Of a DNA stretch of 64,000 bases, positions 16,717 through 34,505 are shown in pieces. Each line of letters begins with the position of its first letter. Position 1 is the first letter of the stretch. Source of the DNA: Gloeobacterales cyanobacterium (GTDB lineage: Bacteria > Cyanobacteriota > Cyanobacteriia > Gloeobacterales > PMM-0068); the NCBI GenBank assembly GCA_038245785.1, contig JBBRSB010000024.1:1-64000 (forward strand). The letters run 5' to 3'. The notes beneath the pieces were generated by a model. The model made no database searches, had not been told where the DNA came from, and saw only the letters and a list, made by a program, of their open reading frames with translations. A program made the translations under genes and the position numbers.

Positions 16717-17162
16717 GCGCAACACCCATGGTCAAGCCGATCGAAATTTTACTAGTAGAAGATAACCCCGGTGATGTGAGGCTGAGTATCGAAGTCCTGA
16801 GAGACGCTAAGGTGCACAATCATTTGAATACCGTGGGCGATGGGGTAGAAGCGTTATCTTTTTTGCGCAAAGAAGGGAAGTATGCCGATGCTCCTCATCC
16901 AGATTTGATTTTACTAGACTTGAATCTGCCTAAAAAAGATGGACGTGAGGTGCTTGCTGAGATCAAAGCCGATGATATATTGAAACGAATCCCTGTAGTC
17001 GTTCTAACCACTTCTCAGTCAGAGGAAGATATCCTCAAAGCCTATGAACTCCATGCCAATTGCTATATCTCAAAGCCGGTGAATTTAGATCAATTCATTA
17101 AAGTAGTACAGTCGATTGAGTCTTTTTGGTTAACGATTGTCAAACTACCTGCTGACAGGTGA
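16713..17162 (+). CDS. Rcp1-like single-domain response regulator
   Basis: [25 protein letters not shown]-terminal FWLTIVKLP; overlaps the kinase stop. Confidence 0.9.
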
Positions 17163-19603
17163 GGTCTATGCATACCAAGCCAATCGAATCTAAACCGATC
17201 AAAGTGCTGCTAGTGGAAGATAATCCAGGGGATGCTCGCCTGATGCAGTTAACCCTGGCAGAAGTGACTTCGGTCAAGTTTGAGCTGACCTGCGTTGATA
17301 AACTTCACAGTGCCTTGGACTGTCTTGCAAAGAAGCCCTTTGATGCTGTTTTGCTAGACCTTTCCCTGCCAGATAGTCAAGGATTCGATACCTTCACGAA
17401 GGTCCATAAGCAGTATCCTGAAGTGCCAACAGTGGTGCTTACAGGATTGAACGATGAGACGCTTGCCCTGAGAGCGGTCCAGGAAGGAGCGCAGGATTAT
17501 CTTGTCAAAGGACAGGTGAATGGGGCGGATCTAATCTCTCGCTCTTTGCGCTATGCCATTGAACGGAAGCGGACTCAAGAAGCGCTGCAAGAAAGTGAAG
17601 AGCGTTTCCGGAGTGCTTTTGACAGTGCAGCCATTGGAATGGCTCTCACCAGCCTCGATGGTCACTGGCTGCAAGTGAATCGAGCCTTGTGTGAAATTGT
17701 GGGCTATTCAGAGCAAGAACTACTCGCTACTAGTTGCATGATAGTGACGCATCCAGAGGACCAGGAAGAAACCGATAGCTGTATGTATCAACTGCTCACT
17801 TGTGATATTCGTTGCCACCAAATAGAAAAACGATATATCCATAAACTTGGCCACATCGTCTGGATTTTATTGAATGTTTCCCTGGTGCGTAATGCTCAAG
17901 GTGAACCCTTATACTTTGTCGATCAAATTCAAGACATCACGGTAGCCAAGCATCAAGAAGAAGAGCTAAAAAAACGCGAAGAACAACTCAGATTGGCGAT
18001 GGAAGCAGCCCAAATGGGTACGTGGGACTGGGATATACAGGCGAACAACTCGCCACAGGCCAGCGACCCTGTCTGGACGGTTATCCCGAAAGGTGCTCGT
18101 TACCCGGACTATCAAACTTTTCTTGAATCTATCCATCCTGAAGACCGTACCTATGTCCATAGAGCGATGTTGAAAGCGATAGAGGAAAGGAAAGAGTACG
18201 AATCTGAATTTCGGGTCATCTGGCCTGATGGCAGCTTACATTGGGTCGAAGGAAAGGGACAAGTCCTCCGTAACGGTGCGGACAAGCCTATCCGCATGGT
18301 TGGTGTAGCGGTAGATATTACCGAGCGCAAACAGGCAGAAGAAGTTCTACAGAAGGCAAACGAAAAATTAGAAATACGTGTAGCAGAACGAACAGTAGCA
18401 CTTAGTAGTGCCAACCAACAACTGATTAAAGAAATTGTTGATCGGGAACAGGCCGAAGAAGCATTAAAGCTGAATGAGGAACGTCTGCGCTTGATTGTTC
18501 AGACGATGCCTGTGATGATGAATGCCCTTGATGCAGAAGGAAATATTATTGCTTGGAATCGAGAGTGTGAAGTAGTAACGGGGTATAACGCAGAGCAAAT
18601 AATATATAACCCAAAAGCTTTAGAATTGCTTTACCCAGATGCAGCCGATCAAAGAAAAGCGATCAGTGAGTGGGTTCAACGGGGTAACAATTATCGCAAC
18701 TGGGAATGGAATATCAGATGCAAAGATGGGACTATAAAAACCTTGGCTTGGTCCAATCTTTCTAAGCAGTTTCCTATCCCTGGCTGGGCCTCCTGGGGAA
18801 CAGGTATCGATATTACAGACCGCAAGCGAGCTGAGACAGAAATTCGTAGAGCATTACAGCAAGAAAAGGAACTAAACGAATTGAAGTCTCATTTTGTATC
18901 CATGACTTCCCATGAATTTCGTACTCCTTTGAGTACTATTCTATCCTCCGCTGAGTTGCTGGAATACTATAGTCAAGGCTGGCCTGAAGACCGAAAAAAA
19001 AGACATTTACATCAAATTCAAAGTGCTATTAAGCATATGACACAACTATTGGATGATGTATTGGTGCTTGGACAATCAGGAGCTAAGAAACTTGAGTTTA
19101 TCTCCGAGCCCATAAGTCTCGATGTATTTTGTTTGGAGATCGTTGAAGAGCTCAAGCTCAATATTGATAGCCGATACAAAATAAAGTTTACCCGCAAAGG
19201 AAACTGTGGCAAGGCTATTTTTGATGTGAAAATACTCCGTCAAATTCTGAACAACCTCCTTTCTAATGCTATCAAGTATTCACCGAAGGGTGGCACCATC
19301 CTCTTTAGTCTTTCCTGCAAGGATAAACAGGCAATATTCCATATCAAAGATGAGGGGATTGGTATTCCATCGGAAGACCAACGTTTACTCTTTGAGCCTT
19401 TTCATAGAGGTGCTAATGTTGAAAGTATCGCAGGGACTGGACTTGGGCTAACGATTGTCAAGAATTGTGTGGACCTATATGGAGGCACCCTTACCTTTAC
19501 AAGTCAGCCCGAAAAAGGAACTACCTTTGTAGTCACACTGCCTATAAACTATTCAGACGCCACAACCCTAACTCATGAGCAAAATTCTCGTCATCGAAGA
19601 TGA
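17159..19603 (+). CDS. hybrid histidine kinase REC-PAS-HisKA-HATPase
   Basis: [28 protein letters not shown]. Confidence 0.9.
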
Positions 19604-20663
19604 AGACTTCGTCCGCACCAATGTATCAGAACTCCTCGAAGCTGAAAACTTTGAGGTTATCAGTGCAGAGAATGGTTTGCTGGGCGTACAAGTTGCCAAA
19701 GAGCAAATCCCGGACTTAATCATCTGTGATGTGATGATGCCTAAGTTAAATGGGAATGAGGTCTTAGAAACGCTCCGTAAAGATCCAAAAACGCAGATGA
19801 TTCCATTTATCTTCTTGACAGCAAAGGCAGATAAAACGGATCTTCGTCAGGCTATGGAACAAGGCGCTGATGATTATTTGACCAAGCCCTTCACTCGCGC
19901 AGAATTGCTTGGAGCTGTTCACAGTCGTCTAGAGAAACAAGAAGTAATCATCAAGCATTCCCAGCAAAAGTTAGATAATCTGCGCAGCGGTATTGCCTAT
20001 GCGCTTCCCCATGAAATGCTGACACCTTTGACCTCTATTCTTGGATTTTCGCAGACGATCATCATGCAATACAACTCACTGAAACGGCCCAAAATTTTGG
20101 AAATGGTCGAAAGAATCCATGATTCAGGGGAACGTCTTCATCGAGTGATTCAAAACTTTCTTCTCTATGCGGAATTAGAACTGGCTGCTGTCAATCCAGA
20201 AAAAATTAAAACTATGAGAGCAAACCAGACCAATTCTGCTCGGCGAGTGGTCACAGGAATGGCGAATCAAAAGGCAAAGCAGTTCAATCGGGAAGCTAAT
20301 CTAATTTTAGAACTAAAAGACTCAGTGATCGCTATTTCAGAAATTAGCTTCAATAAGATGGTCGATGAATTGGTGGACAATGCCTTCAAGCATTCTCCTG
20401 CCGGAACTCCCGTGCGCATTGTCAGTAGTGTTCAAAACGGCATGTTTCTTCTGTCTATTGCTAACCAGGGACGCGGTATGACAGCTGAACAAATCGCTAA
20501 CTTAGGGGCTTATGTGCAATTTGAGCGTCGTGTCCATGAGCAACAGGGATCGGGCTTAGGGCTGGTGATTGCTATGCGTTTGGCCGAATTGCATGGTGGC
20601 AGGCTCACTATTGAAAGTGTGCTTGGTGGAGAAACAGTAATTCAAGTTGTACTGCCTACGTAG
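19575..20663 (+). CDS. hybrid REC-histidine kinase
   Basis: ICDVMMP REC; PHEMLTPL; QQGSGLGL. Confidence 0.9.
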   Translation: MSKILVIEDEDFVRTNVSELLEAENFEVISAENGLLGVQVAKEQIPDLIICDVMMPKLNGNEVLETLRKDPKTQMIPFIFLTAKADKTDLRQAMEQGADDYLTKPFTRAELLGAVHSRLEKQEVIIKHSQQKLDNLRSGIAYALPHEMLTPLTSILGFSQTIIMQYNSLKRPKILEMVERIHDSGERLHRVIQNFLLYAELELAAVNPEKIKTMRANQTNSARRVVTGMANQKAKQFNREANLILELKDSVIAISEISFNKMVDELVDNAFKHSPAGTPVRIVSSVQNGMFLLSIANQGRGMTAEQIANLGAYVQFERRVHEQQGSGLGLVIAMRLAELHGGRLTIESVLGGETVIQVVLPT

Positions 20664-20721
20664 TTTGCCACGCCTGTAATAGGACAGTCACAGAACACTG
20701 CTAGCGAGTAAACTGGAAGTC

Positions 20722-22173
20722 ATGAACTTCATCGATAAGTTAAATGGAGCTATTGCCCACAATCAAAGTTTATTATCCATCGCCCTCAATCCAGATCCAG
20801 AGGTTATTCCTGATTGCTTTTCTTTAGGAGAAGGTGACTCTGTTAGGGCCTCAGAAACCTGGCTACAGTCTGTAATTGTCAAAACAGCTGATTTGGTCTG
20901 CGTCTATGAACTAAACTTAGCGTTTTATCTAGCGCTTGGGCCAACGGGGTTAGATTTACTCCATAAAATTCTATCTGCTATTCCTGAATATATTCCAGTC
21001 ATCTTAGATGCTCAGTATAGTGATATCAATACAGCCACTCTTTTTGCCCAAACTGTTTTTCTAGACTGGCAAGTCGATGCTGTGACCTTGATTCCTTATG
21101 CGGGACAAGATCTTGTTGCTCCTTTTCTGGTCTATCCAGAGAAAGCCGTTTTTGTTCTCTGTGCAACGGCGAATTCTTCAGCCTCCGCTTTACAGGAATA
21201 TCCTTCACCAGAATCTCCTCTATATATGCAGATGACTAGGGAAGCCCAAACCTGGGGAACGCCAGAACAACTGGGCTTAGTTGTTGGGGTGGCAGCGCCT
21301 GAATCCTTAGCCCGGATTCGGCAACTGGCTCCTGAGCGGGTAATTCTGTCCTCTACTACTTGGAACGACGAAAGTACGCTCGTCCAAATTCTTGCTGCTG
21401 GTTTGGATGCCAATGGGGATGGCTTAATTATTCCGGTGCCTCAAAGGTTACTAAGTCAGCCGTCTTTGGCTGTAGAGATTGATCATGTACGAGAGCTGAT
21501 CAATCACGAGCGGCAGCGAATCGCTTGTGAAAATCCCACCTGTTTAGTTTGGATGCCTGATGTCTGCTTTTTGGATCATCATCCGCACGAAGATTTGATT
21601 TTGCAGCTCTACGATATGGGCTGTATTGCCTTTGGAGATCATGTCCAATCTTCTGGTTCAACGCTTCCCTACTATGTCGATCTGCGCAAAATCATCTCTA
21701 ACCCTCAGGTCTTTCATCAGATCCTGAGCGCCTATGCCGATATTTTGAAAGACCTGGTTTTTGATCGAATTGCCGGGATTCCCTATGGCTCCCTGCCTAC
21801 GGCGACAGGTTTAGCGCTACGCATGGGCTACCCGATGATTTTTCCCCGAAAAGAAGTCAAGGCCTACGGGGCGCGTAGACTGATTGAAGGAGCCTACGAA
21901 GAAGGGGAAACCATCGTTGTCGTCGATGACATTCTGATTACGGGGAAGAGTGTCATGGAAGGCACGGGCAAGCTTGAGTCTGAGGGGTTAGAAGTTCAAG
22001 ACATCGTAGTCCTGATTGACCACGAAAGCGGTGCTAGAGAAACCCTCAAACAACGGGGCTATCAAGGTCATGCCGTGCTCACGCTCTCCGAAATTGCTGA
22101 AACATTGTATGAGGCAAGACGGATAAATAAAGAACAGTTTGAGGTTCTAGCCGGAACTTCAGAGAGCCACTAG
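20722..22173 (+). CDS. PyrF-PyrE fusion (OMP decarboxylase-like + orotate phosphoribosyltransferase); decarboxylase domain degenerate
   Basis: C-terminal YYVDLR, RKEVKAYG and VVDDILITGKS; N-terminal OMPDC-like barrel has DAQYSD in place of DxKxxD. Confidence 0.85.
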   Translation: MNFIDKLNGAIAHNQSLLSIALNPDPEVIPDCFSLGEGDSVRASETWLQSVIVKTADLVCVYELNLAFYLALGPTGLDLLHKILSAIPEYIPVILDAQYSDINTATLFAQTVFLDWQVDAVTLIPYAGQDLVAPFLVYPEKAVFVLCATANSSASALQEYPSPESPLYMQMTREAQTWGTPEQLGLVVGVAAPESLARIRQLAPERVILSSTTWNDESTLVQILAAGLDANGDGLIIPVPQRLLSQPSLAVEIDHVRELINHERQRIACENPTCLVWMPDVCFLDHHPHEDLILQLYDMGCIAFGDHVQSSGSTLPYYVDLRKIISNPQVFHQILSAYADILKDLVFDRIAGIPYGSLPTATGLALRMGYPMIFPRKEVKAYGARRLIEGAYEEGETIVVVDDILITGKSVMEGTGKLESEGLEVQDIVVLIDHESGARETLKQRGYQGHAVLTLSEIAETLYEARRINKEQFEVLAGTSESH

Positions 22174-22328
22174 TCTCGCTCTACTTCTTCATTGGTTGCT
22201 CCACAGGATGGACAAATCCACTCATTGGAAAGGGTTGCAATAGACGTTTCTGCGGGGATTTCAGTATCTGGATCTTCTGCTTCCAGATCATAGATATAAC
22301 CGCAGCTTGTGCATTTCTTGGGGCTCAT
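22170..22328 (-). CDS. rubredoxin, divergent (52 aa, not in the ORF track)
   Basis: manual translation MSPKKCTSCGYIYDLEAEDPDTEIPAETSIATLSNEWICPSCGATNEEVERD. Confidence 0.8.
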   Translation of the reverse strand: MSPKKCTSCGYIYDLEAEDPDTEIPAETSIATLSNEWICPSCGATNEEVERD

Positions 22329-22399
22329 TTGCGTATCCTCTCAAGCTTGGGATGACAGATCTCCACGGTAGACGAAAGTGCTTAAAGTAGAATCGAAAA

Positions 22400-23206
22400 A
22401 TGACACAAGACAAGTTGCCAGAAAAAGTCTTAGACTGGTGCAAAACAAACGAATGGTCAGAACCATTTCGCCAAGATGGACTGTACTGGGGTTTTGCGCC
22501 TGGCTCAGTTATTCCAATGCCCCTCCCTCTTCCACAAAAATCTCATGAAAGCTACTTCTTAAATCAATACGCAGAATCAATAAAGACTGATCCTACCTGT
22601 AAATTTCTCGCTGAAAGCTTTCCAACGGATTTTGCAGCCTGGTTGCTCAGTGAACGAATAGCCCTAATGCCGCTTGGTTTAAGTGAACTTAGTTCACAAG
22701 ATATTGAAGCGGATTCATCAGTTTTGCTGGATTCAGACAAGGTACTTTTGCACATCGAATTTCATGTCGAACCAGACCCTTGGATTCCTTTCAAGATGAT
22801 AGATTATCGCCTGAGACTCTACCACTGTTTCCCTGAAAAACAAATGCGTCAATTCGTCATATATTTAGCTCCTACAGATTCAGATCTCGTTTATCAAAGT
22901 GTGTTTGAGACTGAGATGATGCGGCACGAATTTCAGGTTATCCGCCTCTGGGAGCAGCCCACTCAGCTCTTTTTGGAATCGACAGGATTATTGCCCTTGG
23001 CCGTGCTCACTCAAACCCAAGACAAAGTGCAAACGCTGAGACAAGTGGCATCACGGATTGATGCAATTCCAGAAATGCGTATTCAGAGTAATGTGGCTGC
23101 GTCTGCCTCGGTTCTTGCGGGGTTAACGCTAGAAAAGGACTTTATTAATCAAGTTCTAGGTCAGGAAATCATGCAGCAGTCTGTGATTTATCAAATGCAG
23201 AGATGA
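22400..23206 (+). CDS. Rpn/YhgA-like (PD-(D/E)xK) protein with an unrelated N-terminal segment; C-terminus truncated
   Basis: DPTCKFLAESFPTDFAAWLL, LHIEF, RLWEQP and GLLPLAVL; stops right after MQQSVIYQ. Confidence 0.75.
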   Translation: MTQDKLPEKVLDWCKTNEWSEPFRQDGLYWGFAPGSVIPMPLPLPQKSHESYFLNQYAESIKTDPTCKFLAESFPTDFAAWLLSERIALMPLGLSELSSQDIEADSSVLLDSDKVLLHIEFHVEPDPWIPFKMIDYRLRLYHCFPEKQMRQFVIYLAPTDSDLVYQSVFETEMMRHEFQVIRLWEQPTQLFLESTGLLPLAVLTQTQDKVQTLRQVASRIDAIPEMRIQSNVAASASVLAGLTLEKDFINQVLGQEIMQQSVIYQMQR

Positions 23207-23263
23207 AGACTGTCAAGAACAAGTCCAAGCCATAGAAAGCGGCTACGGTGCCTGAGCCATGAG

Positions 23264-23578
23264 TTGAGTGAATTAGAACCATTGCTAAGATTCTTTGCTA
23301 GCTTTGTTTTAGATATGGAATTGGTCAGTCAAATTCTCAGGTGGGATATGGCAGTATTACGCGAGTCGCCTTGGTATCAAGAAATCGAACTGACTGGCGC
23401 TCTTCGCGAAGCTCAAGCCCTTATCCACCGCCAGCTCATGCGGCGCATTGGTGAAGTGGCTCCGGATTTGCAAGCCCAGGTTCAAGCCTTGTCGCTTGCT
23501 CAGCTTGAGGCTTTGGGCGAGGCGCTGTTGGATTTTTCGGAACCCGCAGACTTGGTGAATTGGTTGCAGGGGAATTGA
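23264..23578 (+). pseudogene. C-terminal fragment of a DUF4351/Rpn-family gene
   Basis: WDMAVLRESPWYQEI...LEALGEALLDF...LVNWL; N-terminal part absent. Confidence 0.75.
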
Positions 23579-24262
23579 TTGGGCTAAGCGGCATGAAAAA
23601 AGGTTTTGTCGCAAGAAAGCATTTAGGACAGGAAAACAGAATCTTATTAAGGCTCGGTTGGGCTGAATTTGGATATTCTAACCGTAAGTTTGTGGGCTGA
23701 AAGTGCTGATTTCTCATTGTCGGGAATGCCCTCTAGTAGCGTTTTGTAAATAATCAAGTCTCACAACGATCGAAAACACAACGATTGATGGACTCGAATT
23801 TTATATTGCCATGAATTCATGATTATTAATCCACCTTTGGTGAAGGGAATACAAGTTATAAATTGATGCAGAACAAAGCAAAAATATTCGTAGAAATAAG
23901 ACTGTACAAACCTATTCTAAGTATTTTTCTACACGTTAAACTTCATCAAATCTTCATATAACACTCTACTTCTAAGTAGATATACTTTGGATGTTTGGAT
24001 ATTAAGTCAGATATTTAAGAGCCTTGCAACTCTGGTCTGTAACAACTTAGCACCTCAATAGGGCTGCTTTATTGCACACTATAAAGGAGATATACGGAAA
24101 AGTTCCGTGTAATAACAAGCTATTCTACAAACTGTCAGTCAATGAAAATTATTGACGTTATTCGAGGTTTTCTTTAGTAGACAATACGTATTGTAATGGC
24201 GGCATAAAAATGCAGGTGTGCGTTTAAAAAGACAGCTTTATCAAAGGGTTAAACTAAGTGCT

Positions 24263-25072
24263 ATGACCAATCAGAATATTAGTACCAAAGTAGGAACACT
24301 ATCAGACAGAGAGATAGAAGACTTATGCTCAAAAGGTGATCTGATTGTAGATAATTACTCTAAAAAGAATGTTCATCAATCTTGCTATGAATTACGGGCA
24401 AGTCATACTTATTATGATATTGCAGATAATAACAAAAAATATAGCCTCTCAAACAATGAGTTTATTCTAATAAAACCACGGCAACTAGTCGTAGTTATAA
24501 CTATGGAAACGATCTCTTTACCTACCGATGTTCTTGCAAGAATTCTTACCAAAGGGAAACTTTTTTCAATTGGGCTATTGCCTGTTAATACATATGCTGA
24601 CCCTGGATTTTATGGAAATTTGGGAATTGTTTTTCATAATTGCTCAAACAATTATTTGAAAATTTCCCCTGGAGAATCTATTGCAAAAATGGAATTTTCT
24701 CGCCTTATGGTTCCTGTTGAAAAACCCTACAGAGGTCAGCATGGTTATCAAACTAATATATGGACTATTCCTGAAGACATGATATTGTCCGATAAAGAAA
24801 TTCTAAAGGATTCTAGAATAAAGACTCCAGCAGAAGAAATTATATTATCGTATGGTCCAAATATAGGTAAAGTAATCGATAGAGTTTTTAAATTTGAAAG
24901 ATACTTAATACTCGCAGCGCTGTTTTACTTTTTGTTTTCGATGCTAATCATTTATGAAATGCAGGGTAAAAATGATTGGATAACTCCAACAACAAGTATA
25001 GTTCTAGGCGTACTCTCAAATGTTTTTACTAGCTTACTTGTGTATGCAGCTACTAATATAAGCAGGAGATAA
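24263..25072 (+). CDS. dCTP deaminase/dUTPase-fold protein with two C-terminal TM helices; deaminase catalytic residues absent
   Basis: LSDREI, YELR, TMETISLP, ADPGFYG and PGESIAKMEF...PY match the Dcd fold; hydrophobic YLILAALFYFLFSMLIIY and SIVLGVLSNVFTSLLVYAA; ATG 24263 preferred to GTG 24218. Confidence 0.85.
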   Translation: MTNQNISTKVGTLSDREIEDLCSKGDLIVDNYSKKNVHQSCYELRASHTYYDIADNNKKYSLSNNEFILIKPRQLVVVITMETISLPTDVLARILTKGKLFSIGLLPVNTYADPGFYGNLGIVFHNCSNNYLKISPGESIAKMEFSRLMVPVEKPYRGQHGYQTNIWTIPEDMILSDKEILKDSRIKTPAEEIILSYGPNIGKVIDRVFKFERYLILAALFYFLFSMLIIYEMQGKNDWITPTTSIVLGVLSNVFTSLLVYAATNISRR

Positions 25073-25073
25073 A

Positions 25074-25433
25074 ATGGAAATTAAAGATTTAGCTCATATC
25101 CAAAGAGAATTTGACGCTAAACATGGATGGATGCTGGAGTCTGACAACTCCAAGGCAAGGCTCGAAATAATTAACAAGGACTTAATAGGTCTTTTTGGTG
25201 AGATCGGCGAGTTCGCAAATCTTGTTAAAAAGCTGAATATTGATATGGAAAAGTCAAAGGATACATTTGAGTTAAAACTATCTGATTTTCAAGATAGTTT
25301 AAGTGAGGAATTAATAGATAGCTTTATCTACTTATTTAGAATTGCAACCCATTTAGATTTAGATATAGAAAATTCTTACTTGAAGAAGCTTTCTATAAAT
25401 AGGGAAAAATACAGAAAATATGAAGAGCAATAA
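25074..25433 (+). CDS. MazG-like (all-alpha) nucleotide pyrophosphohydrolase
   Basis: GEIGEFANLVKK and EELIDSFIYL give the ExxE...ExxD metal motif; KKLSINREKY tail. Confidence 0.85.
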   Translation: MEIKDLAHIQREFDAKHGWMLESDNSKARLEIINKDLIGLFGEIGEFANLVKKLNIDMEKSKDTFELKLSDFQDSLSEELIDSFIYLFRIATHLDLDIENSYLKKLSINREKYRKYEEQ

Positions 25434-26508
25434 AAAATATACTGCTTCTTTTCGTGTAAAAGACATAGTTATACCCTCTAGGATTTTCCTGGCTCCAATC
25501 AATACTGGTTTTGGTAAGGATGGGAACCCAACCTCAAACCTTATACTGTTTCATACAGCAAGATCAGGTAAAGGAATAGGTATAAGTTATGTTGGAAATG
25601 TAGCCGTCGATCCTGCTTTTGTTACAAACAATAACACGTTGTTTTTTACAAAGAACCTTGATCAGTGGAAGAAGCTTACAGAGGAGATTTGTTCCAATGG
25701 TTCTTTGCCAGGAATTCAAATAGCATGTCGCAATACTGCACTGAAACCTCCAAGACAATGGCTAAATCAAGATGCTAGTTCTTATATTCAAGTGACACGA
25801 CATGAAATAGCTTCATATTCGCAGGAGTTTCTGGGAAAAATAGCCCAAAATTTTATTCGAAGTGCACAAATTGCCTATGAAGTTGGCTTTAAGGCAGTTC
25901 AAATTCATGCTGCTCATGGGTATTTTATTTCTAACTTTTTAAACCCCAAATTGAATGGTCGAAAAGATATATATGGAACCAAGAAAACTTTGCTGCTAGA
26001 GATGATAGTTGAAGGTATTCGTTCGATTTTACCAGATATTATTCTAGATGTTCGCATATCATTGCTAGACGGACTGGGAAATAGAGAAATTGAATTGACT
26101 GAAAAAGAGCCTATCATCTATGATATTGCTGAACTAGACGTTGATATAATTAGTATTTCGAACGGGACATATGATATCAATAAACAGTTGATTTATCCTC
26201 CTGCTGAATGGGGACATAGTGTTTTTATTGACATTGTTACTCCATTTGCTTTAAGACATCCTGGCAAACTATGGAATGTTGCCGGAAATATATGGGACTT
26301 GAATTTGCTGCCTTCTGAACTTCCAGTTAATATATCTTTTTCTGTAGGTCGTTCATTAATAGCTGATCCAGATTTTATTATTAAGTCTGTTAGTGGGCTG
26401 CATGATTCTATCCAGACTTGCACTAGGACTAATTTGTGCCATTACTACTCAAGAGATCTACCAAATATTGCTTGTCCCATGGATAGGCATTTGAGGCAAT
26501 TCATATAA
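25420..26508 (+). CDS. NADH:flavin oxidoreductase (Old Yellow Enzyme family)
   Basis: RIFLAP, QIHAAHGYFISNFL, NGRKDIYG and GRSLIADPDF; C-terminal Cys cluster. Confidence 0.88.
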   Translation: MKSNKKYTASFRVKDIVIPSRIFLAPINTGFGKDGNPTSNLILFHTARSGKGIGISYVGNVAVDPAFVTNNNTLFFTKNLDQWKKLTEEICSNGSLPGIQIACRNTALKPPRQWLNQDASSYIQVTRHEIASYSQEFLGKIAQNFIRSAQIAYEVGFKAVQIHAAHGYFISNFLNPKLNGRKDIYGTKKTLLLEMIVEGIRSILPDIILDVRISLLDGLGNREIELTEKEPIIYDIAELDVDIISISNGTYDINKQLIYPPAEWGHSVFIDIVTPFALRHPGKLWNVAGNIWDLNLLPSELPVNISFSVGRSLIADPDFIIKSVSGLHDSIQTCTRTNLCHYYSRDLPNIACPMDRHLRQFI

Positions 26509-26620
26509 TTATTCAGCTATCCTTTGAGCTTCTACTCAATCAATAATAATGTTGTGATACATTATGGGAGCGCTACACTGAGGGCATCGTTAGAATCTGG
26601 CACCCTAGAGGCATGCCGCT

Positions 26621-26938
26621 ATGACCTACTCGACCACTGACTACAAACATATTCAACTCGATGACAACGGTATTCCTATCATTGAAGGAACCACGATGAA
26701 AGTTGTAGAGTTGATTACCTCCCACCTTACCTATGGCTGGAGTCCTGAAGAACTGCACTTCCAGTATCCTCATATTGCGCTTGGCAAAATTTACTCAGCG
26801 CTGGCCTACTACTGGGATCACCAAAATGCGCTTGATGCAGACATTCAATCCCGATTTAAGAAAGTCGAACACCTCCGTCAGGGTGCCCTGCCCTCTCGCA
26901 TTGCCCAAAAACTTAAGGAACGCGGAATGCTTTCATGA
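26621..26938 (+). CDS. DUF433 antitoxin
   Basis: PIIEGTTMKV...SPEELHFQYPHI...ALAYYWDH. Confidence 0.88.
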   Translation: MTYSTTDYKHIQLDDNGIPIIEGTTMKVVELITSHLTYGWSPEELHFQYPHIALGKIYSALAYYWDHQNALDADIQSRFKKVEHLRQGALPSRIAQKLKERGMLS

Positions 26939-27282
26939 GCATTGCGCTCTACATGGATGAAAACGTCCCGCGTCAGATCACAGTCGGACTACGTCTACGC
27001 GCTATCGACGTGATAACGGTCCAAGAAGATCAACGAACCGGATTGCCAGACCCTCAAGTCCTCAATCGTGCCACCAAGCTCCAGCGAGTCTTATTTTCCA
27101 GAGACGATGATCTTTTAGCAATTGCCCATCAAAGACAGCAAACAGGCAAACTCTTTTATGGCGTGATTTATTCCCATCCTCAAGGCAGCAGCATTGGCAA
27201 TTGCGTCCGCGACTTGGAACTCATTGCCACCTTGTGCGACTCAGAGGACTGCATCAACCAAGTGCAGTACCTCCCTCTATAA
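26935..27282 (+). CDS. DUF5615 PIN-like toxin
   Basis: YMDENV...RVLFSRDDDL; ATGA overlap with DUF433. Confidence 0.88.
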   Translation: MSIALYMDENVPRQITVGLRLRAIDVITVQEDQRTGLPDPQVLNRATKLQRVLFSRDDDLLAIAHQRQQTGKLFYGVIYSHPQGSSIGNCVRDLELIATLCDSEDCINQVQYLPL

Positions 27283-27406
27283 ACAGCATTGAAAATCTTG
27301 TAGGTAAGTAATGAAGGGGTGGTGTATGACCGACGGGAAAAAGAGGCCAAACCTAAAGCCTCTGCTCTAATGGAGATCTGATAGAAGAATTTGACGTAGT
27401 TGAACT

Positions 27407-28081
27407 ATGTGCGGACGTTTTACTCTAACCCAAACCCCTGAAGCGGTTGCTGAAGCTTTCGATCTTGACGAAGACGACATGCCCGATTTCCCCGCCCGCT
27501 ATAATATTGCCCCCGCACAGCCCATAGGGACGATTGTGGAAGACAGGGATTCGAAAAACCGGACATTCCGACTGATGCGCTGGGGCCTGATTCCCTCCTG
27601 GGCAAAAGACCCTTCAATTGGCGCAAAGCTCATTAATGCCCGTTCCGAGACTGTCACCGAGAAACCCTCCTTTCGAGCAGCTTTTAAGTATCGCCGCTGT
27701 TTAATACCAGCTGATGGATTCTATGAGTGGCAAAAGGCTCAGCCCGGCTCAAAACAATCATCAAAACAACCTTTTTACTTTTCCATGGCTGGCAACCGTC
27801 TCTTTGCCCTTGCCGGACTTTGGGAGTCATGGAACGACATAGAGACCTGCATCATTCTGACCACATCGGCCAACAGCCTTTTACAAACCATCCATGACCG
27901 GATGCCCGTTATTTTGAATCGCGAAGATTATGGCCGCTGGCTAGACCCTACAGTACAAGATGCGGAGGTCTTGAAGGATTTACTGCAACCTTACCCGGAC
28001 GAACCTATGCAAGCGATTCCAGTGAGCACAAGAGTGAATTCTGCCAAGTTTGACGATGCCCTTTGCCTTAAACCGCTATAG
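27407..28081 (+). CDS. SOS response-associated peptidase (SRAP/YedK/HMCES)
   Basis: MCGRF, NARSET, DGFYEW and IHDRMP motifs. Confidence 0.95.
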   Translation: MCGRFTLTQTPEAVAEAFDLDEDDMPDFPARYNIAPAQPIGTIVEDRDSKNRTFRLMRWGLIPSWAKDPSIGAKLINARSETVTEKPSFRAAFKYRRCLIPADGFYEWQKAQPGSKQSSKQPFYFSMAGNRLFALAGLWESWNDIETCIILTTSANSLLQTIHDRMPVILNREDYGRWLDPTVQDAEVLKDLLQPYPDEPMQAIPVSTRVNSAKFDDALCLKPL

Positions 28082-28201
28082 ACCACTTGGGGGAATTCCG
28101 CTATACCTCGGACGGTAGATGCATTTGCAGAGGAAGTACGGCCTGATCGTAAAAGCTTCAAATCGATACAGCCTTTCGACAAATTCTACGGAGAATGAAT
28201 C

Positions 28202-29254
28202 GTGAAATATAAGCTATTGGGCAAAAGCGGACTTCGTGTTTCTGAACTTTGTCTCGGTACGATGACCTTTGGCGAAGATTGGGGTTGGGGTGCATCCAAA
28301 GATGAAAGCCGTCAAATCTTTGATACGTTTGTCGAAGCAGGTGGAAACTTTATCGATACAGCGAACGGCTACACCGATGGCAGTAGTGAAAAGATTGTTG
28401 GTGAATTCATTGCTTCGGATCGAGAACGCTTTGTTGTTGCGACCAAGTATTCATTTCCGAATCACATGGGCGATCGTAATGGTAATCCCAATGGCAGTGG
28501 TAATCATCGAAAAAATTTGATGCAATCGCTTGAAGGCAGCTTAAAACGATTGAACACCGATTATGTGGATCTATTTTGGCTGCACGCTTGGGACTTTACT
28601 ACACCTGTTGAAGAAGTGATGCGTGCTTTTGATGACATGGTACACCAAGGAAAAGTGCTTTACATAGGCATTTCCGATACGCCTGCTTGGATTGTGGCAG
28701 AGGCGAATACCTTAGCCCGATGCTATGGATGGACTCAATTCGTGGCCACGCAGATCGAGTACAGCTTAGTTGAGAGAACGCCAGAACGAGATTTGCTACC
28801 GATGGCAAAAGCGTTTGATTTGGCGGTGACACCCTGGTCGCCATTAGCAGGAGGGGTGTTGACGGGGAAATACAGTCAGTCGAATGGCAACAGTCAATCC
28901 ACTTCGCGTGGCCAAGACATTCCTGAGCGCAGCTTAAAGATTGCTCAAGTCGTGGGAGAGATTGCTCAAGATATAGGGCGCTCATCGGCTCAAATTGCCT
29001 TGGCCTGGATTCGTGCCCAGAGCCCGCAGATGATCCCAATTATTGGTGCCCGAAAGCTAGAGCAATTGCAAGATAACCTCAAGTGTTTGGAAGTGACGTT
29101 ATCGCCTGAACAGTTGCAGCGGCTCAATCAAGTCAGTCAGATTGAACTGGGCTTTCCACATGACTTTTTGGGTAGTGACATGATTCACGATCGCTTATTT
29201 GGCGGCACGTTCGAGGCGATTGATAATCCTCGACAAATCATGACGCGCGCCTAA
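28202..29254 (+). CDS. aldo/keto reductase
   Basis: LCLGTMTFG, IDTANGY, ATKY and WSPLAGG motifs. Confidence 0.93.
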   Translation: MKYKLLGKSGLRVSELCLGTMTFGEDWGWGASKDESRQIFDTFVEAGGNFIDTANGYTDGSSEKIVGEFIASDRERFVVATKYSFPNHMGDRNGNPNGSGNHRKNLMQSLEGSLKRLNTDYVDLFWLHAWDFTTPVEEVMRAFDDMVHQGKVLYIGISDTPAWIVAEANTLARCYGWTQFVATQIEYSLVERTPERDLLPMAKAFDLAVTPWSPLAGGVLTGKYSQSNGNSQSTSRGQDIPERSLKIAQVVGEIAQDIGRSSAQIALAWIRAQSPQMIPIIGARKLEQLQDNLKCLEVTLSPEQLQRLNQVSQIELGFPHDFLGSDMIHDRLFGGTFEAIDNPRQIMTRA

Positions 29255-29430
29255 AATATGACTTTGAAGGGGGGATGCTATTTAAAGCTACCAACATCAT
29301 TCATTGTTTCAGACCTCTCCCGTAAAATTATGTTTGGAATCTGGTACTAGGCCCAAAGGACGCATGGGACTGACCCGAAGCCGTGACCAGTTAGGATTAA
29401 GTCCGTTGACCATCTTTAAAGGACCATCGA

Positions 29431-29715
29431 ATGCTGTTCATGATTGTTGAGCGGTTCAAAGATAATGACATGCTGCCAATCTATAAGCGTATTCGTGACG
29501 AAGGTAGAATGTTCCCTGAAGGTCTTAAGTATATTGATAGTTGGATAGAACCAAATTTTAGTAGATGCTTTCAGCTTATGGAGTGTGATGACTTGCGATT
29601 GCTGCAAGAATGGATCTTAAAGTGGCGTGGTTCAGGAGCGACTTTTGAAATTGTTCCTGTAGTTAGTAGCCAAGAAACAAGAGGAGTTGTCGAGCCATGG
29701 CTTGACAACTTGTAG
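29431..29715 (+). CDS. DUF3303-like protein
   Basis: MLFMIVERF...GRMFPEGL...CFQLMECDD...FEIVPV. Confidence 0.8.
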   Translation: MLFMIVERFKDNDMLPIYKRIRDEGRMFPEGLKYIDSWIEPNFSRCFQLMECDDLRLLQEWILKWRGSGATFEIVPVVSSQETRGVVEPWLDNL

Positions 29716-29717
29716 GC

Positions 29718-30772
29718 CATTGACTGATCGTCGTCGACATGCGGCAATTGCGATCAAGTAAATTGCTGTCATGTATAAGGCCACACTGCCTAACAGTGTC
29801 CAACGAGTGCCCACAGACAAAACGCTGTGGGTCGCCGTTTCGATGATCGTCTGCTCGGTCCCTACAGCAACTAATACCAGTTCCATCAGTATCGGTAAAT
29901 GTCCGTAGTTAAATGCATGAACGGACTTAATTCCGCGAATCACAACGGCTGTTTCTAAGAAATTGAAGTAAAGCCACCACAGACAGGCGGCAATGCCAAA
30001 TCCACCAACGGCAGCCAGGGTGGGCAGAATACTCCACGAGCCGCTTGCCGTTGTACTAGAGACGGAGACGATCGATTCGCCCAACACAATCAGCGTGAAT
30101 AAGCCAAATCGTTCTTACAGATGAGAGGGGTGCGCAGGAGTACCCGCGAGGATGCGCGTTCCCAAAATCGGCACCAAAAGTTCGATCATTATAGCGGCCC
30201 CATAGCGGCCCCATAGCGGCCCCCCATAGCCAATAGCGGGTTGGATCTGGAAAAGCGAGTGATCCTAACCACAGGCTGGTACTAGGAATATAGGAGGCAA
30301 GATACAGCTTCAGATTTGGTCGCGCTGCTTGCACATAGCGCGTGGCGCGGAAATACAAACCCAATACAATCGTTCGAATCGTGACATAGGCCAGCACAAA
30401 ACCGACGGCTCCTGTATCAAAAGCATTATGGACATTGGCTGCTAAGAAAATCACAGCTAGCATTCCAGTCAAAATCAACAGGCGATGGGGAGGATCATCT
30501 GTGTTGTAGCGATCGACGTAAAATGTTACCAGCACCCATACCCACCAGCACGGTACAAACGACGCCGTAAACTGGAGAAAACCGATCCAGGAAAGATGCT
30601 GTTCAAGCATGTGGCTGAGTTCAGCAATCACGACAACAAACACAAGATCAAAAAAGAGTTCTATCCAACTCGCGTGATTACTCTCTTCTTCCTCAGAGGC
30701 GACTCGTAGGCGCGGGCTTTTCCAGCGAGATGCAGCGGTTGAAGTTTGGGTAAGGGGCTGAGTCATGGCCAT
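29718..30772 (-). pseudogene. low temperature requirement A (LtrA) family, disrupted
   Basis: ASWIELFFDLVFV; frameshift at a tandem repeat (30191-30223); in-frame TAA in PSHL*ERFGLFTLIVLGE; 3' end looks truncated. Confidence 0.85.
30191..30223 (+). repeat. 11-bp tandem repeat, three copies
   Basis: (ATAGCGGCCCC)3. Confidence 0.9.
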
Positions 30773-30775
30773 AAT

Positions 30776-31033
30776 TTAGATAAATACCTGGTCAACGTAG
30801 CACCAGCGCCAGTTTTCACCGGGTTCGATGGATTGCACAATCGGATGTTGGGTTGCGTGAAAATGCTTTGTTGCGTGTTTATTCTTCGAGGAGTCGCAGC
30901 AACCGATCTGACCACAGATCAAGCACTTACGCAGATGTACCCAAGTGTCGCCCAGTGCCAAACATTCTTCGCATCCGTTCGCACTGGGAGCTACGCTTTG
31001 AATCTGATTAACGTGTCGACAAGTGTTGCTCAT
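30776..31033 (-). CDS. UBP-type zinc-finger protein
   Basis: CEECLALGDTWVHLRKCLICGQIGCCDSSKNKHATKHF; start MSNTCRH. Confidence 0.88.
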   Translation of the reverse strand: MSNTCRHVNQIQSVAPSANGCEECLALGDTWVHLRKCLICGQIGCCDSSKNKHATKHFHATQHPIVQSIEPGENWRWCYVDQVFI

Positions 31034-31119
31034 GATATTTCCGATAATGTAAAGATCGGGTGAAGCCTGCTTCAAAAATTTCATACCGCTGAGCTAAAAC
31101 ATTCATCCATTGATCGACC

Positions 31120-31244
31120 ATGCTTTGTCCAGAATCTGCCCGCACGATCCGAAAGCGAGCACCATACTGCTGTCGTAAATCGCGTGCCACGGCTTGAAGC
31201 ACCTCTGGATCATCATCCACAGTCAAAATGACGGGCTTAGCCAT
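31120..31244 (-). pseudogene. 5' remnant of a REC-thioredoxin-reductase-type gene
   Basis: MAKPVILTVDDDPEVLQAVARDLRQQYGARFRIVRADSG, then similarity ends abruptly. Confidence 0.7.
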
Positions 31245-31285
31245 ATGGAAGAATCCATGCAACTACTTCAGTCTAGAGCAATGAT

Positions 31286-31444
31286 TTAGCTCGGCTCAAA
31301 CTCCTCTTTAGTCGCCCCGCAAACAGGACAAACCCACTCAGCGGGTAAAGCATCAAAGGGGGTTCCTGGCGGTATTCCTGATTCAGGATCTCCTGCCGCA
31401 GGATCATAGGTATAGCTGCAGACGCTGCATTTATGGACTTGCAT
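31286..31444 (-). CDS. rubredoxin
   Basis: [38 protein letters not shown]. Confidence 0.95.
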
Positions 31445-31449
31445 ATTGT

Positions 31450-32271
31450 TTATCCCTTGACGCCACTGCCTGTATCGGTTGGAATGATGAATCGCTGGAG
31501 AAAAACAAAAAATACTAAAATCGGGAGGATAGATATGACCGAGCCTGCCGCCACCAAACGCCAATCTTCAGCAAACGCACTAGATAGATTGGCAACCCCT
31601 AAGGGTAGGGTGTAGAACTTAGGGTCATCCAAGATAATCAAAGGCCACAGGAAATCTCCCCACATTGCAATAAAAGTAAATACCGCTAAAGTTGTCAAGG
31701 CCGGACGGATCGAAGGCAACATTACGTGCCACCAGATGCCCAGACTAGAATAGCCATCTACCCGTGCCGCCTCTTCCAGTTCCTTCGGTACGCCTGCAAA
31801 AGCCTGGCGCAGCAGGAAAATACCAAAGGCCGAAACCATGTATGGAAAAATAATGCCCATATAGGTATTTTTCAGATTGAGCTGTACCGCCAAGATGTAG
31901 AGGGGAATCATCGTGATCTGAAAGGGGATCATGATTGTGCCGATGATCGACCAGAAGACTAAAGTTTTTCCTTTGAAGTCAAAGCGTGCCAGAGGGTAAG
32001 CCGCTAAGGAACAAAACAGCAGATTCAAAATAACCGTGATCCCAGAGACTAAGACACTATTGAATAGATAGCGGCCAAAGGGATTGTTATTCCATACTTT
32101 GCTGAAGTTGCTAAACGTGGGAGCGGCTGGAAGGAGCTGGGGCGGATAGAGAAAAATATTTTCTTGACTCGATTTGAAGGCCGTACTGACCAGCCAAAGT
32201 AAAGGGCCAATCATTAAGAGACCAATGATCAGTAAGAGGATGTATTGAAACGTATTTTTAGCGATGTTCAC
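31450..32271 (-). CDS. carbohydrate ABC transporter permease
   Basis: [13 protein letters not shown] motif; TM helices. Confidence 0.92.
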
Positions 32272-33152
32272 TAGAGGGCTCCTCCCGTTGGGTCAACAGA
32301 ACGGACGCTGAGCACCGAGAGTACAAAAACCACAAGAAATAAGACGACGCCAATAGCAGAGGCATAGCCCATTTCTAAGCTGGAAAATCCCTTTTCATAG
32401 AGATAGTAAACAATCGTTTTAGAACTATTAGCAGGTCCGCCTCGAGACATCACATAGACTTCTTCAAAGACTTTCATTGCTGCAATTGCAGAGATAACGG
32501 TTACTAAAGTAATGTAGGGCTTTAATAGGGGGATTGTGATATCTACATGCTTACGCCAACCGTCTGAGCCATCGATAGCCGCTGCTTCATAGAGGTCTTG
32601 GGGAATGGTCTGTAAACCAGCGAGATAAATTACCATGTAATATCCCAACCCTTTCCAAATGGTGACGGCAATGATCGCGAAAATAGCTGTGCTTGAATTG
32701 GTCAACCAGGGGATTTTTACAGAGCTGAAGATAGATATGAAATAGTTTAGTAAACCATTCTCCGCATAGATCCATTTCCAAGCGATCCCCGCTACTACGA
32801 CAGAGACAATGACGGGGACATAGTAGGCTGCTCGAAAAAATTGAATTCCTCTTAGCTTTTGATTGACCAAAATAGCAAGAAAAAGCGGCAAGATAACCAA
32901 GGAAGGAACTGCCACGACCATATAAATTAGGGTATTGAATAAGACTTTCCAAAAAAGTTGGTCTTTCCAAAGCTGCTCATAGTTTTTGAGTCCAATGAAA
33001 TTGGGAGAGCCGATAATGTCATAGTCTGTGAAACTTAAGTAGATTGCTTGCAGTACAGGCCAGAAAGAAGATACTGCCAAGATTAAGAGGGCAGGCAATA
33101 GAAAAACATAGGGAGTTAGGGTTCTATTGAGCTTCATGCCAGAGCGTTCCAC
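32271..33152 (-). CDS. carbohydrate ABC transporter permease
   Basis: LYEAAAIDG EAA motif. Confidence 0.92.
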   Translation of the reverse strand: MERSGMKLNRTLTPYVFLLPALLILAVSSFWPVLQAIYLSFTDYDIIGSPNFIGLKNYEQLWKDQLFWKVLFNTLIYMVVAVPSLVILPLFLAILVNQKLRGIQFFRAAYYVPVIVSVVVAGIAWKWIYAENGLLNYFISIFSSVKIPWLTNSSTAIFAIIAVTIWKGLGYYMVIYLAGLQTIPQDLYEAAAIDGSDGWRKHVDITIPLLKPYITLVTVISAIAAMKVFEEVYVMSRGGPANSSKTIVYYLYEKGFSSLEMGYASAIGVVLFLVVFVLSVLSVRSVDPTGGAL

Positions 33153-34405: not shown

Positions 34406-34505
34406 ATGAGATGGACCGTCCCTAGACTTTTCGGATGATTATAGAACCCTGCACGGACGGGCATGTTAAATTTCAACATAATAGACACACCTCCACCAAA
34501 GCCTC

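Follow-up and report, generated by a model that had tools for sequence, protein, structure and literature searches.

A membrane-anchored dCTP deaminase-fold protein and a flavoenzyme form a widespread mobile gene pair, a candidate nucleotide-based defence module also found in a Gloeobacterales cyanobacterium

In the Kongming anti-phage system, a base-modifying enzyme (the adenosine deaminase KomA) and nucleotide kinases produce dITP (bioRxiv 10.1101/2024.12.20.629578; PMC13454610), which is sensed by KomB, a HAM1-like protein that has lost its catalytic residue and kept its pocket (bioRxiv 10.1101/2024.12.20.629578). The locus analyzed here lies at positions 24263–26508 of a 64,000-nucleotide stretch of DNA (below, the window) from a Gloeobacterales cyanobacterium (assembly GCA_038245785.1, contig JBBRSB010000024.1, positions 1–64,000). 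It encodes (i) a protein that joins a dCTP deaminase (DCD)/dUTPase fold to predicted transmembrane (TM) helices, designated DCD-TM (gene 1), (ii) a MazG-like pyrophosphatase (gene 2) and (iii) a flavoenzyme of the Old Yellow Enzyme (OYE) family (gene 3). The original prediction, made from the sequence of the window, had proposed that these three genes constitute a nucleotide-sensing defence system. Comparison with related loci revealed that the conserved unit is the pair of DCD-TM and a flavoenzyme, accompanied by nucleotide-enzyme accessories, and not the trio; the window copy is the commonest three-gene form. The module is real, widespread and mobile, and is an attractive candidate for a new nucleotide-based defence system.

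The module is undescribed in the sources that were searched. No model of PADLOC-DB v2.0.0 matched any of the three window proteins at E≤0.01, and full-text literature searches that combined dCTP deaminase, OYE or other flavin oxidoreductases with anti-phage defence gave no paper, in agreement with the original prediction, which knew of no described system with this trio. The only PADLOC matches came from accessories and fusions present in relatives (VakA, PDC-M51B and a CBASS PN effector). The main texts of the DefensePredictor preprint and of the P2/P4 hotspot paper contain none of the terms dCTP deaminase, dUTPase, MazG, flavin, oxidoreductase or old yellow, and that of the Kongming preprint contains none of dCTP deaminase, dUTPase, MazG, flavin, oxidoreductase or transmembrane; the supplements of each could list the pair.

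Like the window locus, Kongming is a three-gene operon, and its description includes variant operons that carry other nucleotide-metabolism genes. However, no component is homologous. Neither the KomA deaminase, the KomB HAM1 nor the KomC SIR2 domain occurs in the window operon, which has instead a pyrimidine-specific DCD/dUTPase β-fold, a flavin reductase and, in place of SIR2, a presumed TM-hairpin effector carried by the sensor itself. The resemblance is one of logic only. For the layout of a sensor joined to TM helices, the membrane effectors Cap15 and PycTM serve as a comparison. As in the membrane effectors of the cyclic oligonucleotide-based anti-phage signalling system (CBASS), Pycsar and Thoeris, an N-terminal domain (in the module a putative ligand-binding domain) is followed by approximately two TM helices and is encoded beside a presumed ligand-controlling enzyme; moreover, two DCD-TM relatives have an added PNP domain, in one case of the CBASS effector type. 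Unlike those systems, the operon contains no cyclase, CD-NTase or TIR gene and matches none of their PADLOC models. No CD-NTase or pyrimidine cyclase was detected in the window operon or among the Pfam-scanned neighbours (30 genome loci and a few viral or plasmid loci), the 70 metagenome loci having been scanned with custom hidden Markov models only. The pVip-Vak systems share with the module an accessory Tmk-like kinase placed beside a putative nucleotide-modifying enzyme in defence contexts, but the module has no radical-SAM enzyme, and the kinase, present in only 13 of 95 loci, is absent from the window.

A collection clustered at 90% contains 622 homologues of gene 1 at E≤1e-3; its identity is about 50% with proteins from Bacillus, Lysinibacillus, Staphylococcus pseudintermedius, Marinobacterium, Acrocarpospora and other bacteria. 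A profile search of 1.84 billion representatives returned 11,323 matches at E≤1e-3 (ordinary Dcd included), and 140 clusters at 50% identity reached E≤1e-30. In total, 104 loci were taken in (30 from species-representative genomes, 70 from metagenomes and 4 viral contigs), and 95 distinct loci remained after eight duplicates and one locus holding only the tip of the gene had been dropped. The genome loci were obtained by an alignment-based scan of contigs; a query of genome contigs with a single protein found none.

This analysis revealed that a flavoenzyme gene adjoins DCD-TM in 75 of the 79 distinct loci that could be assessed, the contigs of the other 16 being too short to judge the partner. 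The partner is an OYE in 71 loci, and in four loci of a distant clade (L028, L030, L104 and L119) it is a Flavin_Reduct protein (PF01613), which is not homologous to OYE. Four loci have room for a partner and lack one: two fragments (L027 and L029), a frameshifted copy (L094) and an intact copy accompanied by dNK and NUDIX genes (L009). DCD-TM mostly precedes OYE, and the order is reversed in several loci. A further, decayed copy of high GC content (L056/L057; L057:1308-3277) contains a NUDIX gene and an OYE remnant (approximately 150 N-terminal residues) that continues, in another frame, into an intact-looking DCD-TM. The pairwise distances for DCD-TM and those for OYE were correlated (Spearman 0.44 for 49 pairs, with 0 of 999 permutations as high), a value that is indicative only, as the pairs are related. 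A MazG gene is located between or beside the pair in 46 of the 95 loci, so that it is an optional accessory of the module. The predicted co-occurrence of three genes thus withstood the comparison for DCD-TM and the flavoenzyme, and not for MazG.

The other accessories identified in the 95 loci are a Tmk-like kinase (13 loci), a protein of about 150 aa (5), NUDIX (3) and dNK (1), while one locus has a second type of MazG together with a HAD gene. The Tmk-like kinases, whose P-loop and DRY motif are intact, match the PADLOC models VakA (1e-11) and PDC-M51B (up to 2e-19). In two relatives, a PNP_UDP_1 domain is fused to the N-terminus of DCD-TM (L020, 2946-4568; L092, 889-2284); the PNP domain of L020 matches the PADLOC CBASS model "Effector PN-superfamily" at 5.5e-34, and L020 is followed by PDC-M65A/B. 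The protein of about 150 aa, for which there was no Pfam or PADLOC match, is encoded directly after the Tmk-like gene in loci without MazG (L010:8553-9002, L013:8497-8970, L016:2588-3037, L055:7572-8033 and L070:7552-8013), the genome loci among them (L010, L013 and L016) being from Bacteroidota; it may be a further component of the Tmk-like variant. Tmk-like kinases placed upstream (L005:5200-5976, L006:5196-5975 and L011:345-1124) have a Cys-rich C-terminal extension of about 50 residues (C-x-K-D-Y-G-C-D-D ... C ... C), which is absent from those placed downstream.

Residues 13–147 of the gene 1 protein match the Pfam family DCD (PF22769), and its score against the NCBIfam dCTP deaminase model TIGR02274 (86.8 bits) is below the cut-off of 92.8. 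The AlphaFold2 (AF2) model, built from an alignment of 29 homologues (predicted local distance difference test score, pLDDT, 83.4), comprises a β-fold, a disordered arm, helices at residues 177–197 and long helices at 199–235 and 242–268. Foldseek matched this model to Escherichia coli Dcd (1xs4; E 5.6e-14, probability 1.00), and also to the mycobacterial Dcd-dUTPase and the archaeal dUTPases of Pyrococcus (P45; 9ln0/9ln3) and Thermococcus pacificus (8y1w). The E-values for Dcd and the archaeal dUTPases range from 5.6e-14 to 6.6e-13, with target-normalised template modelling scores (TM-scores) of 0.69–0.89. Gene 1 shares with these enzymes a DPGF motif and, at the C-terminus, the Tyr/Gly/Gln arm, and differs from them in an extra 100-residue linker and TM hairpin and in its sub-threshold TIGR02274 score. 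The hydrophobic C-terminal helices are retained among family members despite variation of their sequence. The original assignment of a Dcd fold with two C-terminal hydrophobic helices is thereby borne out. The protein atlas offered only automatic names of the type "dCTP deaminase-like".

In the 29-sequence alignment, the pocket positions K97-G98, S102, N109-T-Y-A-D113-P-G-F116, V123, K142 and E144 are invariant, as is the arm Y156-x-G-Q-H-G161. Residues S111, R115 and E138 of E. coli Dcd, which we take to be catalytic (E138 variants occur among the PDB titles), align with G98, S102 and V123 of gene 1, and all three replacements are invariant in the family. Since all three deaminase residues are replaced, deamination is excluded, and gene 1 was rejected as a functional dCTP deaminase. 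It is this loss, combined with the invariance of DPGF and of the YxGQHG arm, that points to a sensor, and the conserved pocket (NTYADPGF) and arm would fit a site that still binds nucleotide. Among solved structures, the sequences nearest to gene 1 are those of active archaeal dUTPases, which likewise have no Glu (9ln0, E 2.2e-16). Relative to 9ln0, gene 1 has K97-G98-K99 in place of R-S-S and K142 in place of the motif-4 Gln, and keeps the motif-3 Asp (D113). Hydrolase activity of gene 1 is doubtful, yet may be retained. The description of gene 1 as catalytically dead therefore holds for deamination and goes too far beyond it, given that the nearest solved relatives are active dUTPases without the Glu. 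Prediction of a complex between DCD residues 1–200 and OYE gave a score of 0.00, which is no evidence either way.

Gene 3 scores 75.3 bits against PF00724 (threshold 27). Its best NCBIfam matches are BaiCD (3.7e-28, residues 9–353) and the N-domain of bilirubin reductase (BilR). For its AF2 model (pLDDT 95.5), the highest query-normalised TM-scores were obtained with 2-naphthoyl-CoA reductase (NCR; 0.80) and FadH (0.78), the other listed single-barrel OYEs scoring 0.68–0.74. Within the active-site motif, A165, H166, G167 and Y168 do not vary among 28 partner OYEs, and 90% or more of these keep H163 and A164; Q100, R212 and R311, at flavin mononucleotide (FMN)-contacting Gln/Arg positions, are likewise invariant. 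The core motif that the original prediction had reported for the OYE is thus conserved among the partners (H163, H166 and Y168). In the C-terminal Cys motif, C334, C340 and C352 are present in 28 of 28 partner OYEs and H341 in 27, and position 337, a Thr in gene 3, is Cys in 8. BLASTP aligned C334-T-R-T337-N with C-I-G-C-N of FadH. The FadH cysteines, presumably the ligands of its 4Fe-4S cluster, are at 335/338/342/354, and C334, C340 and C352 of gene 3 correspond to the first, third and fourth of them (direct alignment covers only the first Cys and position 337, C340 and C352 being matched by spacing). The Cys-rich tail alone gave only chance matches in the PDB. Gene 3 consists of the TIM barrel and the Cys motif only; its 362 residues end 10 residues past the last Cys, and FadH has 672. 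On these features, gene 3 probably belongs to the Fe-S (FadH/NCR/BaiCD) branch of OYEs, without the FAD/NAD(P)H domains. Like FadH, 2-naphthoyl-CoA reductase, BaiCD and bilirubin reductase, it has an FMN-type TIM barrel followed by a Cys motif. It differs from them in that the second Cys is absent (as in 20 of the 28 partners, gene 3 included) and in being paired with DCD-TM rather than with genes of CoA-ester or bile-pigment metabolism.

Gene 2 is of the all-α NTP pyrophosphohydrolase type. It matches DCTPP1/RS21-C6 in the PDB as well as the PHROG families pyrophosphatase (3.6e-5) and MazG-like (9.3e-5), and stays under the Pfam thresholds (dUTPase_2, 18 bits with a cut-off of 22.9; PF03819, no match), so that its family assignment rests on motifs and on the PDB and PHROG matches. 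The metal-binding EXXE/EEXXD residues E43, E46, E78/E79 and D82 are, in line with the original prediction, kept in 42–44 of 44 operon-linked homologues, and gene 2 is probably an active (d)NTP pyrophosphohydrolase. It shares these residues with the house-cleaning pyrophosphatases of the DCTPP1/MazG type; unlike them, it shares an operon with DCD-TM and OYE, and NUDIX can take its place.

No orthologue was found among 40 relatives of the cyanobacterium (2 from its genus, 11 from its order and 27 from its class), in which there were three weak matches (E≥1e-6) to other Dcd-fold genes. Carriers of the module are scattered over at least 12 phyla, and the window copy is 47–57% identical to copies in Bacillota, Actinomycetota, Planctomycetota, Bacteroidota, Acidobacteriota and others. 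The GC content of the trio is 0.343, compared with a window mean of 0.475 (sd 0.034, 2246-nt segments), and the block from about 23700 to 26520 (GC 0.342) is the lowest-GC stretch of the 64 kb. Taken together, the lack of an orthologue in the 40 relatives, the identity to copies in other phyla and the low GC content indicate horizontal spread, and the block 23700–26508 is a horizontally acquired copy of a mobile module. A search of the flanks for direct or inverted repeats marking an insertion of the block was negative.

Full-length copies of gene 1 are present on two Priestia megaterium plasmids, and matches to its soluble part on two Sinorhizobium meliloti plasmids and one Rhizobium plasmid. 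On the S. meliloti conjugative plasmid pSmeRU11d, the three genes are annotated in turn as hypothetical, MazG and hypothetical, with flanking insertion sequence elements, and the operon is followed by genes for an ORC-CDC6-like protein, a calcineurin-like phosphoesterase and Dam. The P. megaterium plasmid pB1.1 (L114) contains an intact Rpn-family gene about 6 kb from the module. Genes for ORC-CDC6-like proteins (PF24389) adjoin the module in two unrelated hosts (L012:9546-12519, with PRTase-CE; L115:9074-12078, with a calcineurin-like phosphoesterase bearing a winged helix-turn-helix) and appear to be another conflict-system neighbour. The OYE-type module is also present on three viral (prophage) contigs, one of which (L032) has no detected MazG open reading frame (ORF); on two prophage contigs it is located between an S24 repressor/CII/VapE-primase block and PrtN/integrase. 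The viral contig L119 (3974-5466), a P2-like element, encodes a distant DCD-TM of 307 aa and a Flavin_Reduct protein of 190 aa between the replication gene GpA (PF05840) and portal/terminase. The GpA–GpQ interval is presented as a hotspot with many P2 defence systems (PMC13586616). A search of E. coli genomes for distant DNA matches to the L119 pair gave none, and no named E. coli member was listed in the profile searches.

For the 30 genome loci, neighbours up to 6 kb away were scanned with PADLOC models of named and candidate systems at E≤1e-10; subtilase, mad2-like methyltransferases, LeoA-like GTPase, MutY-like "nicking", HTH_VI and the module's own Tmk-like and PNP parts were excluded from the count. 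A defence match was obtained in 14 of the 30 loci, which gives an impression of enrichment from a count without a background control. The matches were to type I restriction-modification (L007, with an Abi_alpha domain by Pfam), Schlafen/pAgo-associated (L008), PD-Lambda-5 A/B and PDC-S68 (L009), DpdF/PsyrT-like (L010), a methyltransferase and PRTase_III-A (L012), a methyltransferase and DpdB (L013), PDC-M02A/B (L016), LmuB, GajA and GajB (Gabija) upstream and DruE (Druantia) downstream (L018), PDC-S28 (L019), PDC-M65A/B (L020), RT-Toprim, weakly (L021), two methyltransferases (L022), a type II restriction endonuclease (L024), and SIR2 with a DRT-type reverse transcriptase (L028). Overall, mobile or defensive contexts of the homologues far outnumber metabolic ones, as anticipated by the original prediction, which had set ordinary metabolic clusters against a defence role.

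The reading that we favour, at a probability of roughly 45%, is that the module is an undescribed anti-phage system of the abortive-infection type, with a pyrimidine deoxynucleotide as its ligand and DCD-TM and the flavoenzyme as its core. Upon infection, an unusual pyrimidine nucleotide would appear or accumulate; the flavoenzyme would make this ligand, e.g. by C5=C6 reduction of a uracil or thymine nucleotide, or would control its level, and kinases, whether Tmk-like ones from the module or those of host or phage, would raise it to the triphosphate. The DCD-fold domain, presumably a trimer that has kept its pocket and arm and lost catalysis, would then bind the ligand, and closure of the arm would be relayed by the linker helix to the trimer's six TM helices, resulting in membrane damage, to which a fused PNP nucleosidase may add in some relatives. 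MazG, or NUDIX elsewhere, would hydrolyse the triphosphate and so set a threshold against self-activation. The nucleotide fold without its deaminase residues, the arm leading into linker and hairpin, the PNP fusions, the obligatory flavoenzyme with its active site intact and the phosphorylating and dephosphorylating accessories all fit a signal-and-effector design like that of Kongming, and the sensor-plus-TM part is strengthened by the fusions of a CBASS effector-type PNP domain to DCD-TM and by the example of Kongming, in which a dead house-cleaning fold acts as sensor. A more specific version seems rather unlikely, namely that the flavin reductase makes a reduced or redox-modified pyrimidine deoxynucleotide (e.g. 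of the 5,6-dihydro-dUTP/dTTP type) as the immune messenger, with the dead DCD trimer gating its own hairpins, MazG or NUDIX as off-switch, and Tmk-like or phage kinases finishing the synthesis.

Several points weigh against the favoured reading. The window proteins have no match among the defence models, and none of 50,697 cultured phage genomes holds a full-length copy of gene 1, tblastn detecting only ordinary Dcd/dUTPase genes in them. No defence match was obtained for 16 of the 30 genome loci; the contigs of two (L001 and L011) are shorter than 3.4 kb and have no flanking genes, and most of the others have housekeeping or uncharacterised neighbours (ValRS, FtsZ/FtsA, biotin ligase and succinate dehydrogenase at some loci). 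The DCD domain may yet prove to be a hydrolase, as its nearest solved relatives are active without the Glu. We know of no precedent for OYE activity on nucleotides, and gene 3 lacks the NAD(P)H/FAD domains that usually supply electrons in Fe-S OYEs. Finally, the exchange of OYE for Flavin_Reduct argues that generic flavin reduction, and not a specific ene-reduction, may matter, which weakens C5=C6 reduction in particular. Of the defence interpretation as originally proposed, the co-occurrence of the core genes, the mobile or defensive context and the absence of a known system were upheld; the trio as the unit and catalytic inactivity beyond deamination were not.

The same exchange keeps alive an explanation in which DCD-TM senses a dNTP pool disturbed by the phage and activates the flavoenzyme, which would drain NAD(P)H or generate reactive oxygen at the membrane and so cause death or arrest. 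OYE and Flavin_Reduct have NAD(P)H-dependent flavin reduction in common, and NAD+-depleting effectors are common in defence. We regard this as quite improbable: the separate NADPH/FAD domain that normally feeds Fe-S-branch OYEs is missing from gene 3, the effector-like parts (TM hairpin and PNP fusion) are on the DCD protein, and the conserved His/His/Tyr suggests a real ene-type substrate. The accessories bring to mind, in turn, a viperin-like production of antiviral nucleotides, in which MazG or NUDIX would convert a pyrimidine dNTP to the dNMP, the flavoenzyme would modify its base, and Tmk-like, host or phage kinases would turn the product into a toxic dNTP analogue able to stop phage replication; DCD-TM would be catalytic or self-protective (e.g. 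a membrane-tethered hydrolase) rather than a gated effector. Modification of nucleotides usually proceeds from a pyrophosphatase through a change at the dNMP level to a dedicated kinase, as in the hydroxymethyl-deoxycytidine (hm-dC) pathway of T4; the near-invariant catalytic residues of MazG, the intact Tmk-like kinases matching VakA and PDC-M51B, and the active archaeal dUTPases nearest to gene 1 among solved sequences would suit this scheme as well. It is nevertheless unlikely, since the kinases and MazG are inconstant, whereas DCD-TM and the flavoenzyme are constant, since the R-S-S phosphate motif of dUTPases is K-G-K in gene 1, and since the conserved TM hairpin and the PNP-effector fusions would be left unexplained.

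The module might also have no role in immunity, and be a mobile metabolic or house-cleaning unit (e.g. one acting at the membrane to sanitise or salvage pyrimidine nucleotides that are damaged or reduced) or a plasmid or prophage addiction module. All of its parts come from metabolic enzyme families, and the lack of a match to defence-database models, the 16 genome loci without a defence gene within 6 kb and the occurrence of housekeeping neighbours would be in keeping with such a role. This is nonetheless improbable in view of the absence from the 40 relatives and the very patchy distribution at about 50% identity across phyla, the copies on plasmids, in prophage cargo slots and in the P2 defence hotspot, the decayed copies (L027, L029, L056/L057 and L094) and the lost enzyme residues of gene 1.

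The organization of the window locus is summarized in Table 1. Three coupled ORFs of the + strand fill the interval: the TAA stop of gene 1 is separated by one base from the ATG of gene 2, and gene 3 starts 14 nt ahead of the gene 2 stop. An alternative GTG start for gene 1 is present at 24218, and the homologues begin at the ATG at 24263. The tight coupling (a 1-nt gap and a 14-nt overlap), the AT-richness relative to the flanks and the position between Rpn remnants and a toxin-antitoxin pair, all noted in the original prediction, were recovered in the ORF calls, the base composition and the flanking genes. The AT-rich leader, the presumed promoter region, contains no ORF with a homologue; promoter-like sites in it were not above those of shuffled sequence, and terminator-like sites were absent or not in excess. 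There was no Rfam match within 22000–28500 and no tRNA within 15000–35000.

Upstream of the leader is a split Rpn-like gene of the Rpn-family/PD-(D/E)XK-like type, probably a disrupted gene. Downstream of gene 3, a DUF433 and a DUF5615/PIN-like gene overlapping by 4 nt look like a pair of the toxin-antitoxin type, and are followed by a SRAP gene. Two small ORFs of the − strand encode paired CxxC motifs (...CTSCGY...CPSCG... in the first) and are rubredoxin-like by eye.

Table 1. Features of the module and its surroundings in the window (residue numbers refer to the respective protein).
Feature	Positions	Strand	Remarks
Gene 1, DCD-TM, 269 aa	24263..25072	+	PF22769, E 5e-17
DCD/dUTPase-fold domain of gene 1, residues 13–164	24299..24754	+	Alignment of 29 sequences
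Two predicted TM helices of gene 1, residues 215–233 and 246–264	24905..25054	+	Kyte-Doolittle 19-residue windows 2.18 and 1.83
Gene 2, MazG/DCTPP1-like, 119 aa	25074..25433	+	DCTPP1/RS21-C6, E 9e-5
Gene 3, OYE-family FMN enzyme, 362 aa	25420..26508	+	PF00724, E 6.8e-21
OYE active-site motif H163-A-A-H166-G-Y168	25906..25923	+	Aligns with HAAHGY of YqjM
C-terminal Cys motif C334-x5-C340-H-Y-x9-C352	26419..26475	+	Homologous to the FadH 4Fe-4S motif region
AT-rich leader 5′ of gene 1	23700..24262	+	Part of the low-GC block; GC 0.33–0.38 from about 23700
Split Rpn-like gene (probably disrupted)	22400..23578
First part of split gene, 268 aa	22400..23206		TIGR01784, 1.7e-10; slr1957-like N-terminus
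Second part of split gene, 104 aa	23264..23578		DUF4351
DUF433 (105 aa) and DUF5615/PIN-like (115 aa) genes	26621..27282		4-nt overlap
SRAP (YedK-like) gene	27407..28081		3′ of the DUF433/DUF5615 pair
Small ORF	22170..22328	−	Paired CxxC motifs
Small ORF	31286..31564	−	Paired CxxC motifs

The module belongs to a large, multi-phylum family, and with the tractable plasmid copies of S. meliloti and P. megaterium the hypothesis is directly testable. Even if the module does not serve immunity, the strict coupling of an Fe-S-type OYE to a putative nucleotide-binding membrane protein hints at an unfamiliar redox chemistry of nucleotides. If it is a defence system, it would bring in two protein families never before linked to immunity: the DCD/dUTPase fold, as a membrane-tethered receptor, and the OYE/flavin reductases. 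Base-modified nucleotide messengers would then extend from purines to pyrimidines and to redox chemistry. Should the messenger prove to be a dihydropyrimidine, the module would represent a second, pyrimidine/redox branch of base-modified signalling after Kongming, with a sister clade that uses Flavin_Reduct.

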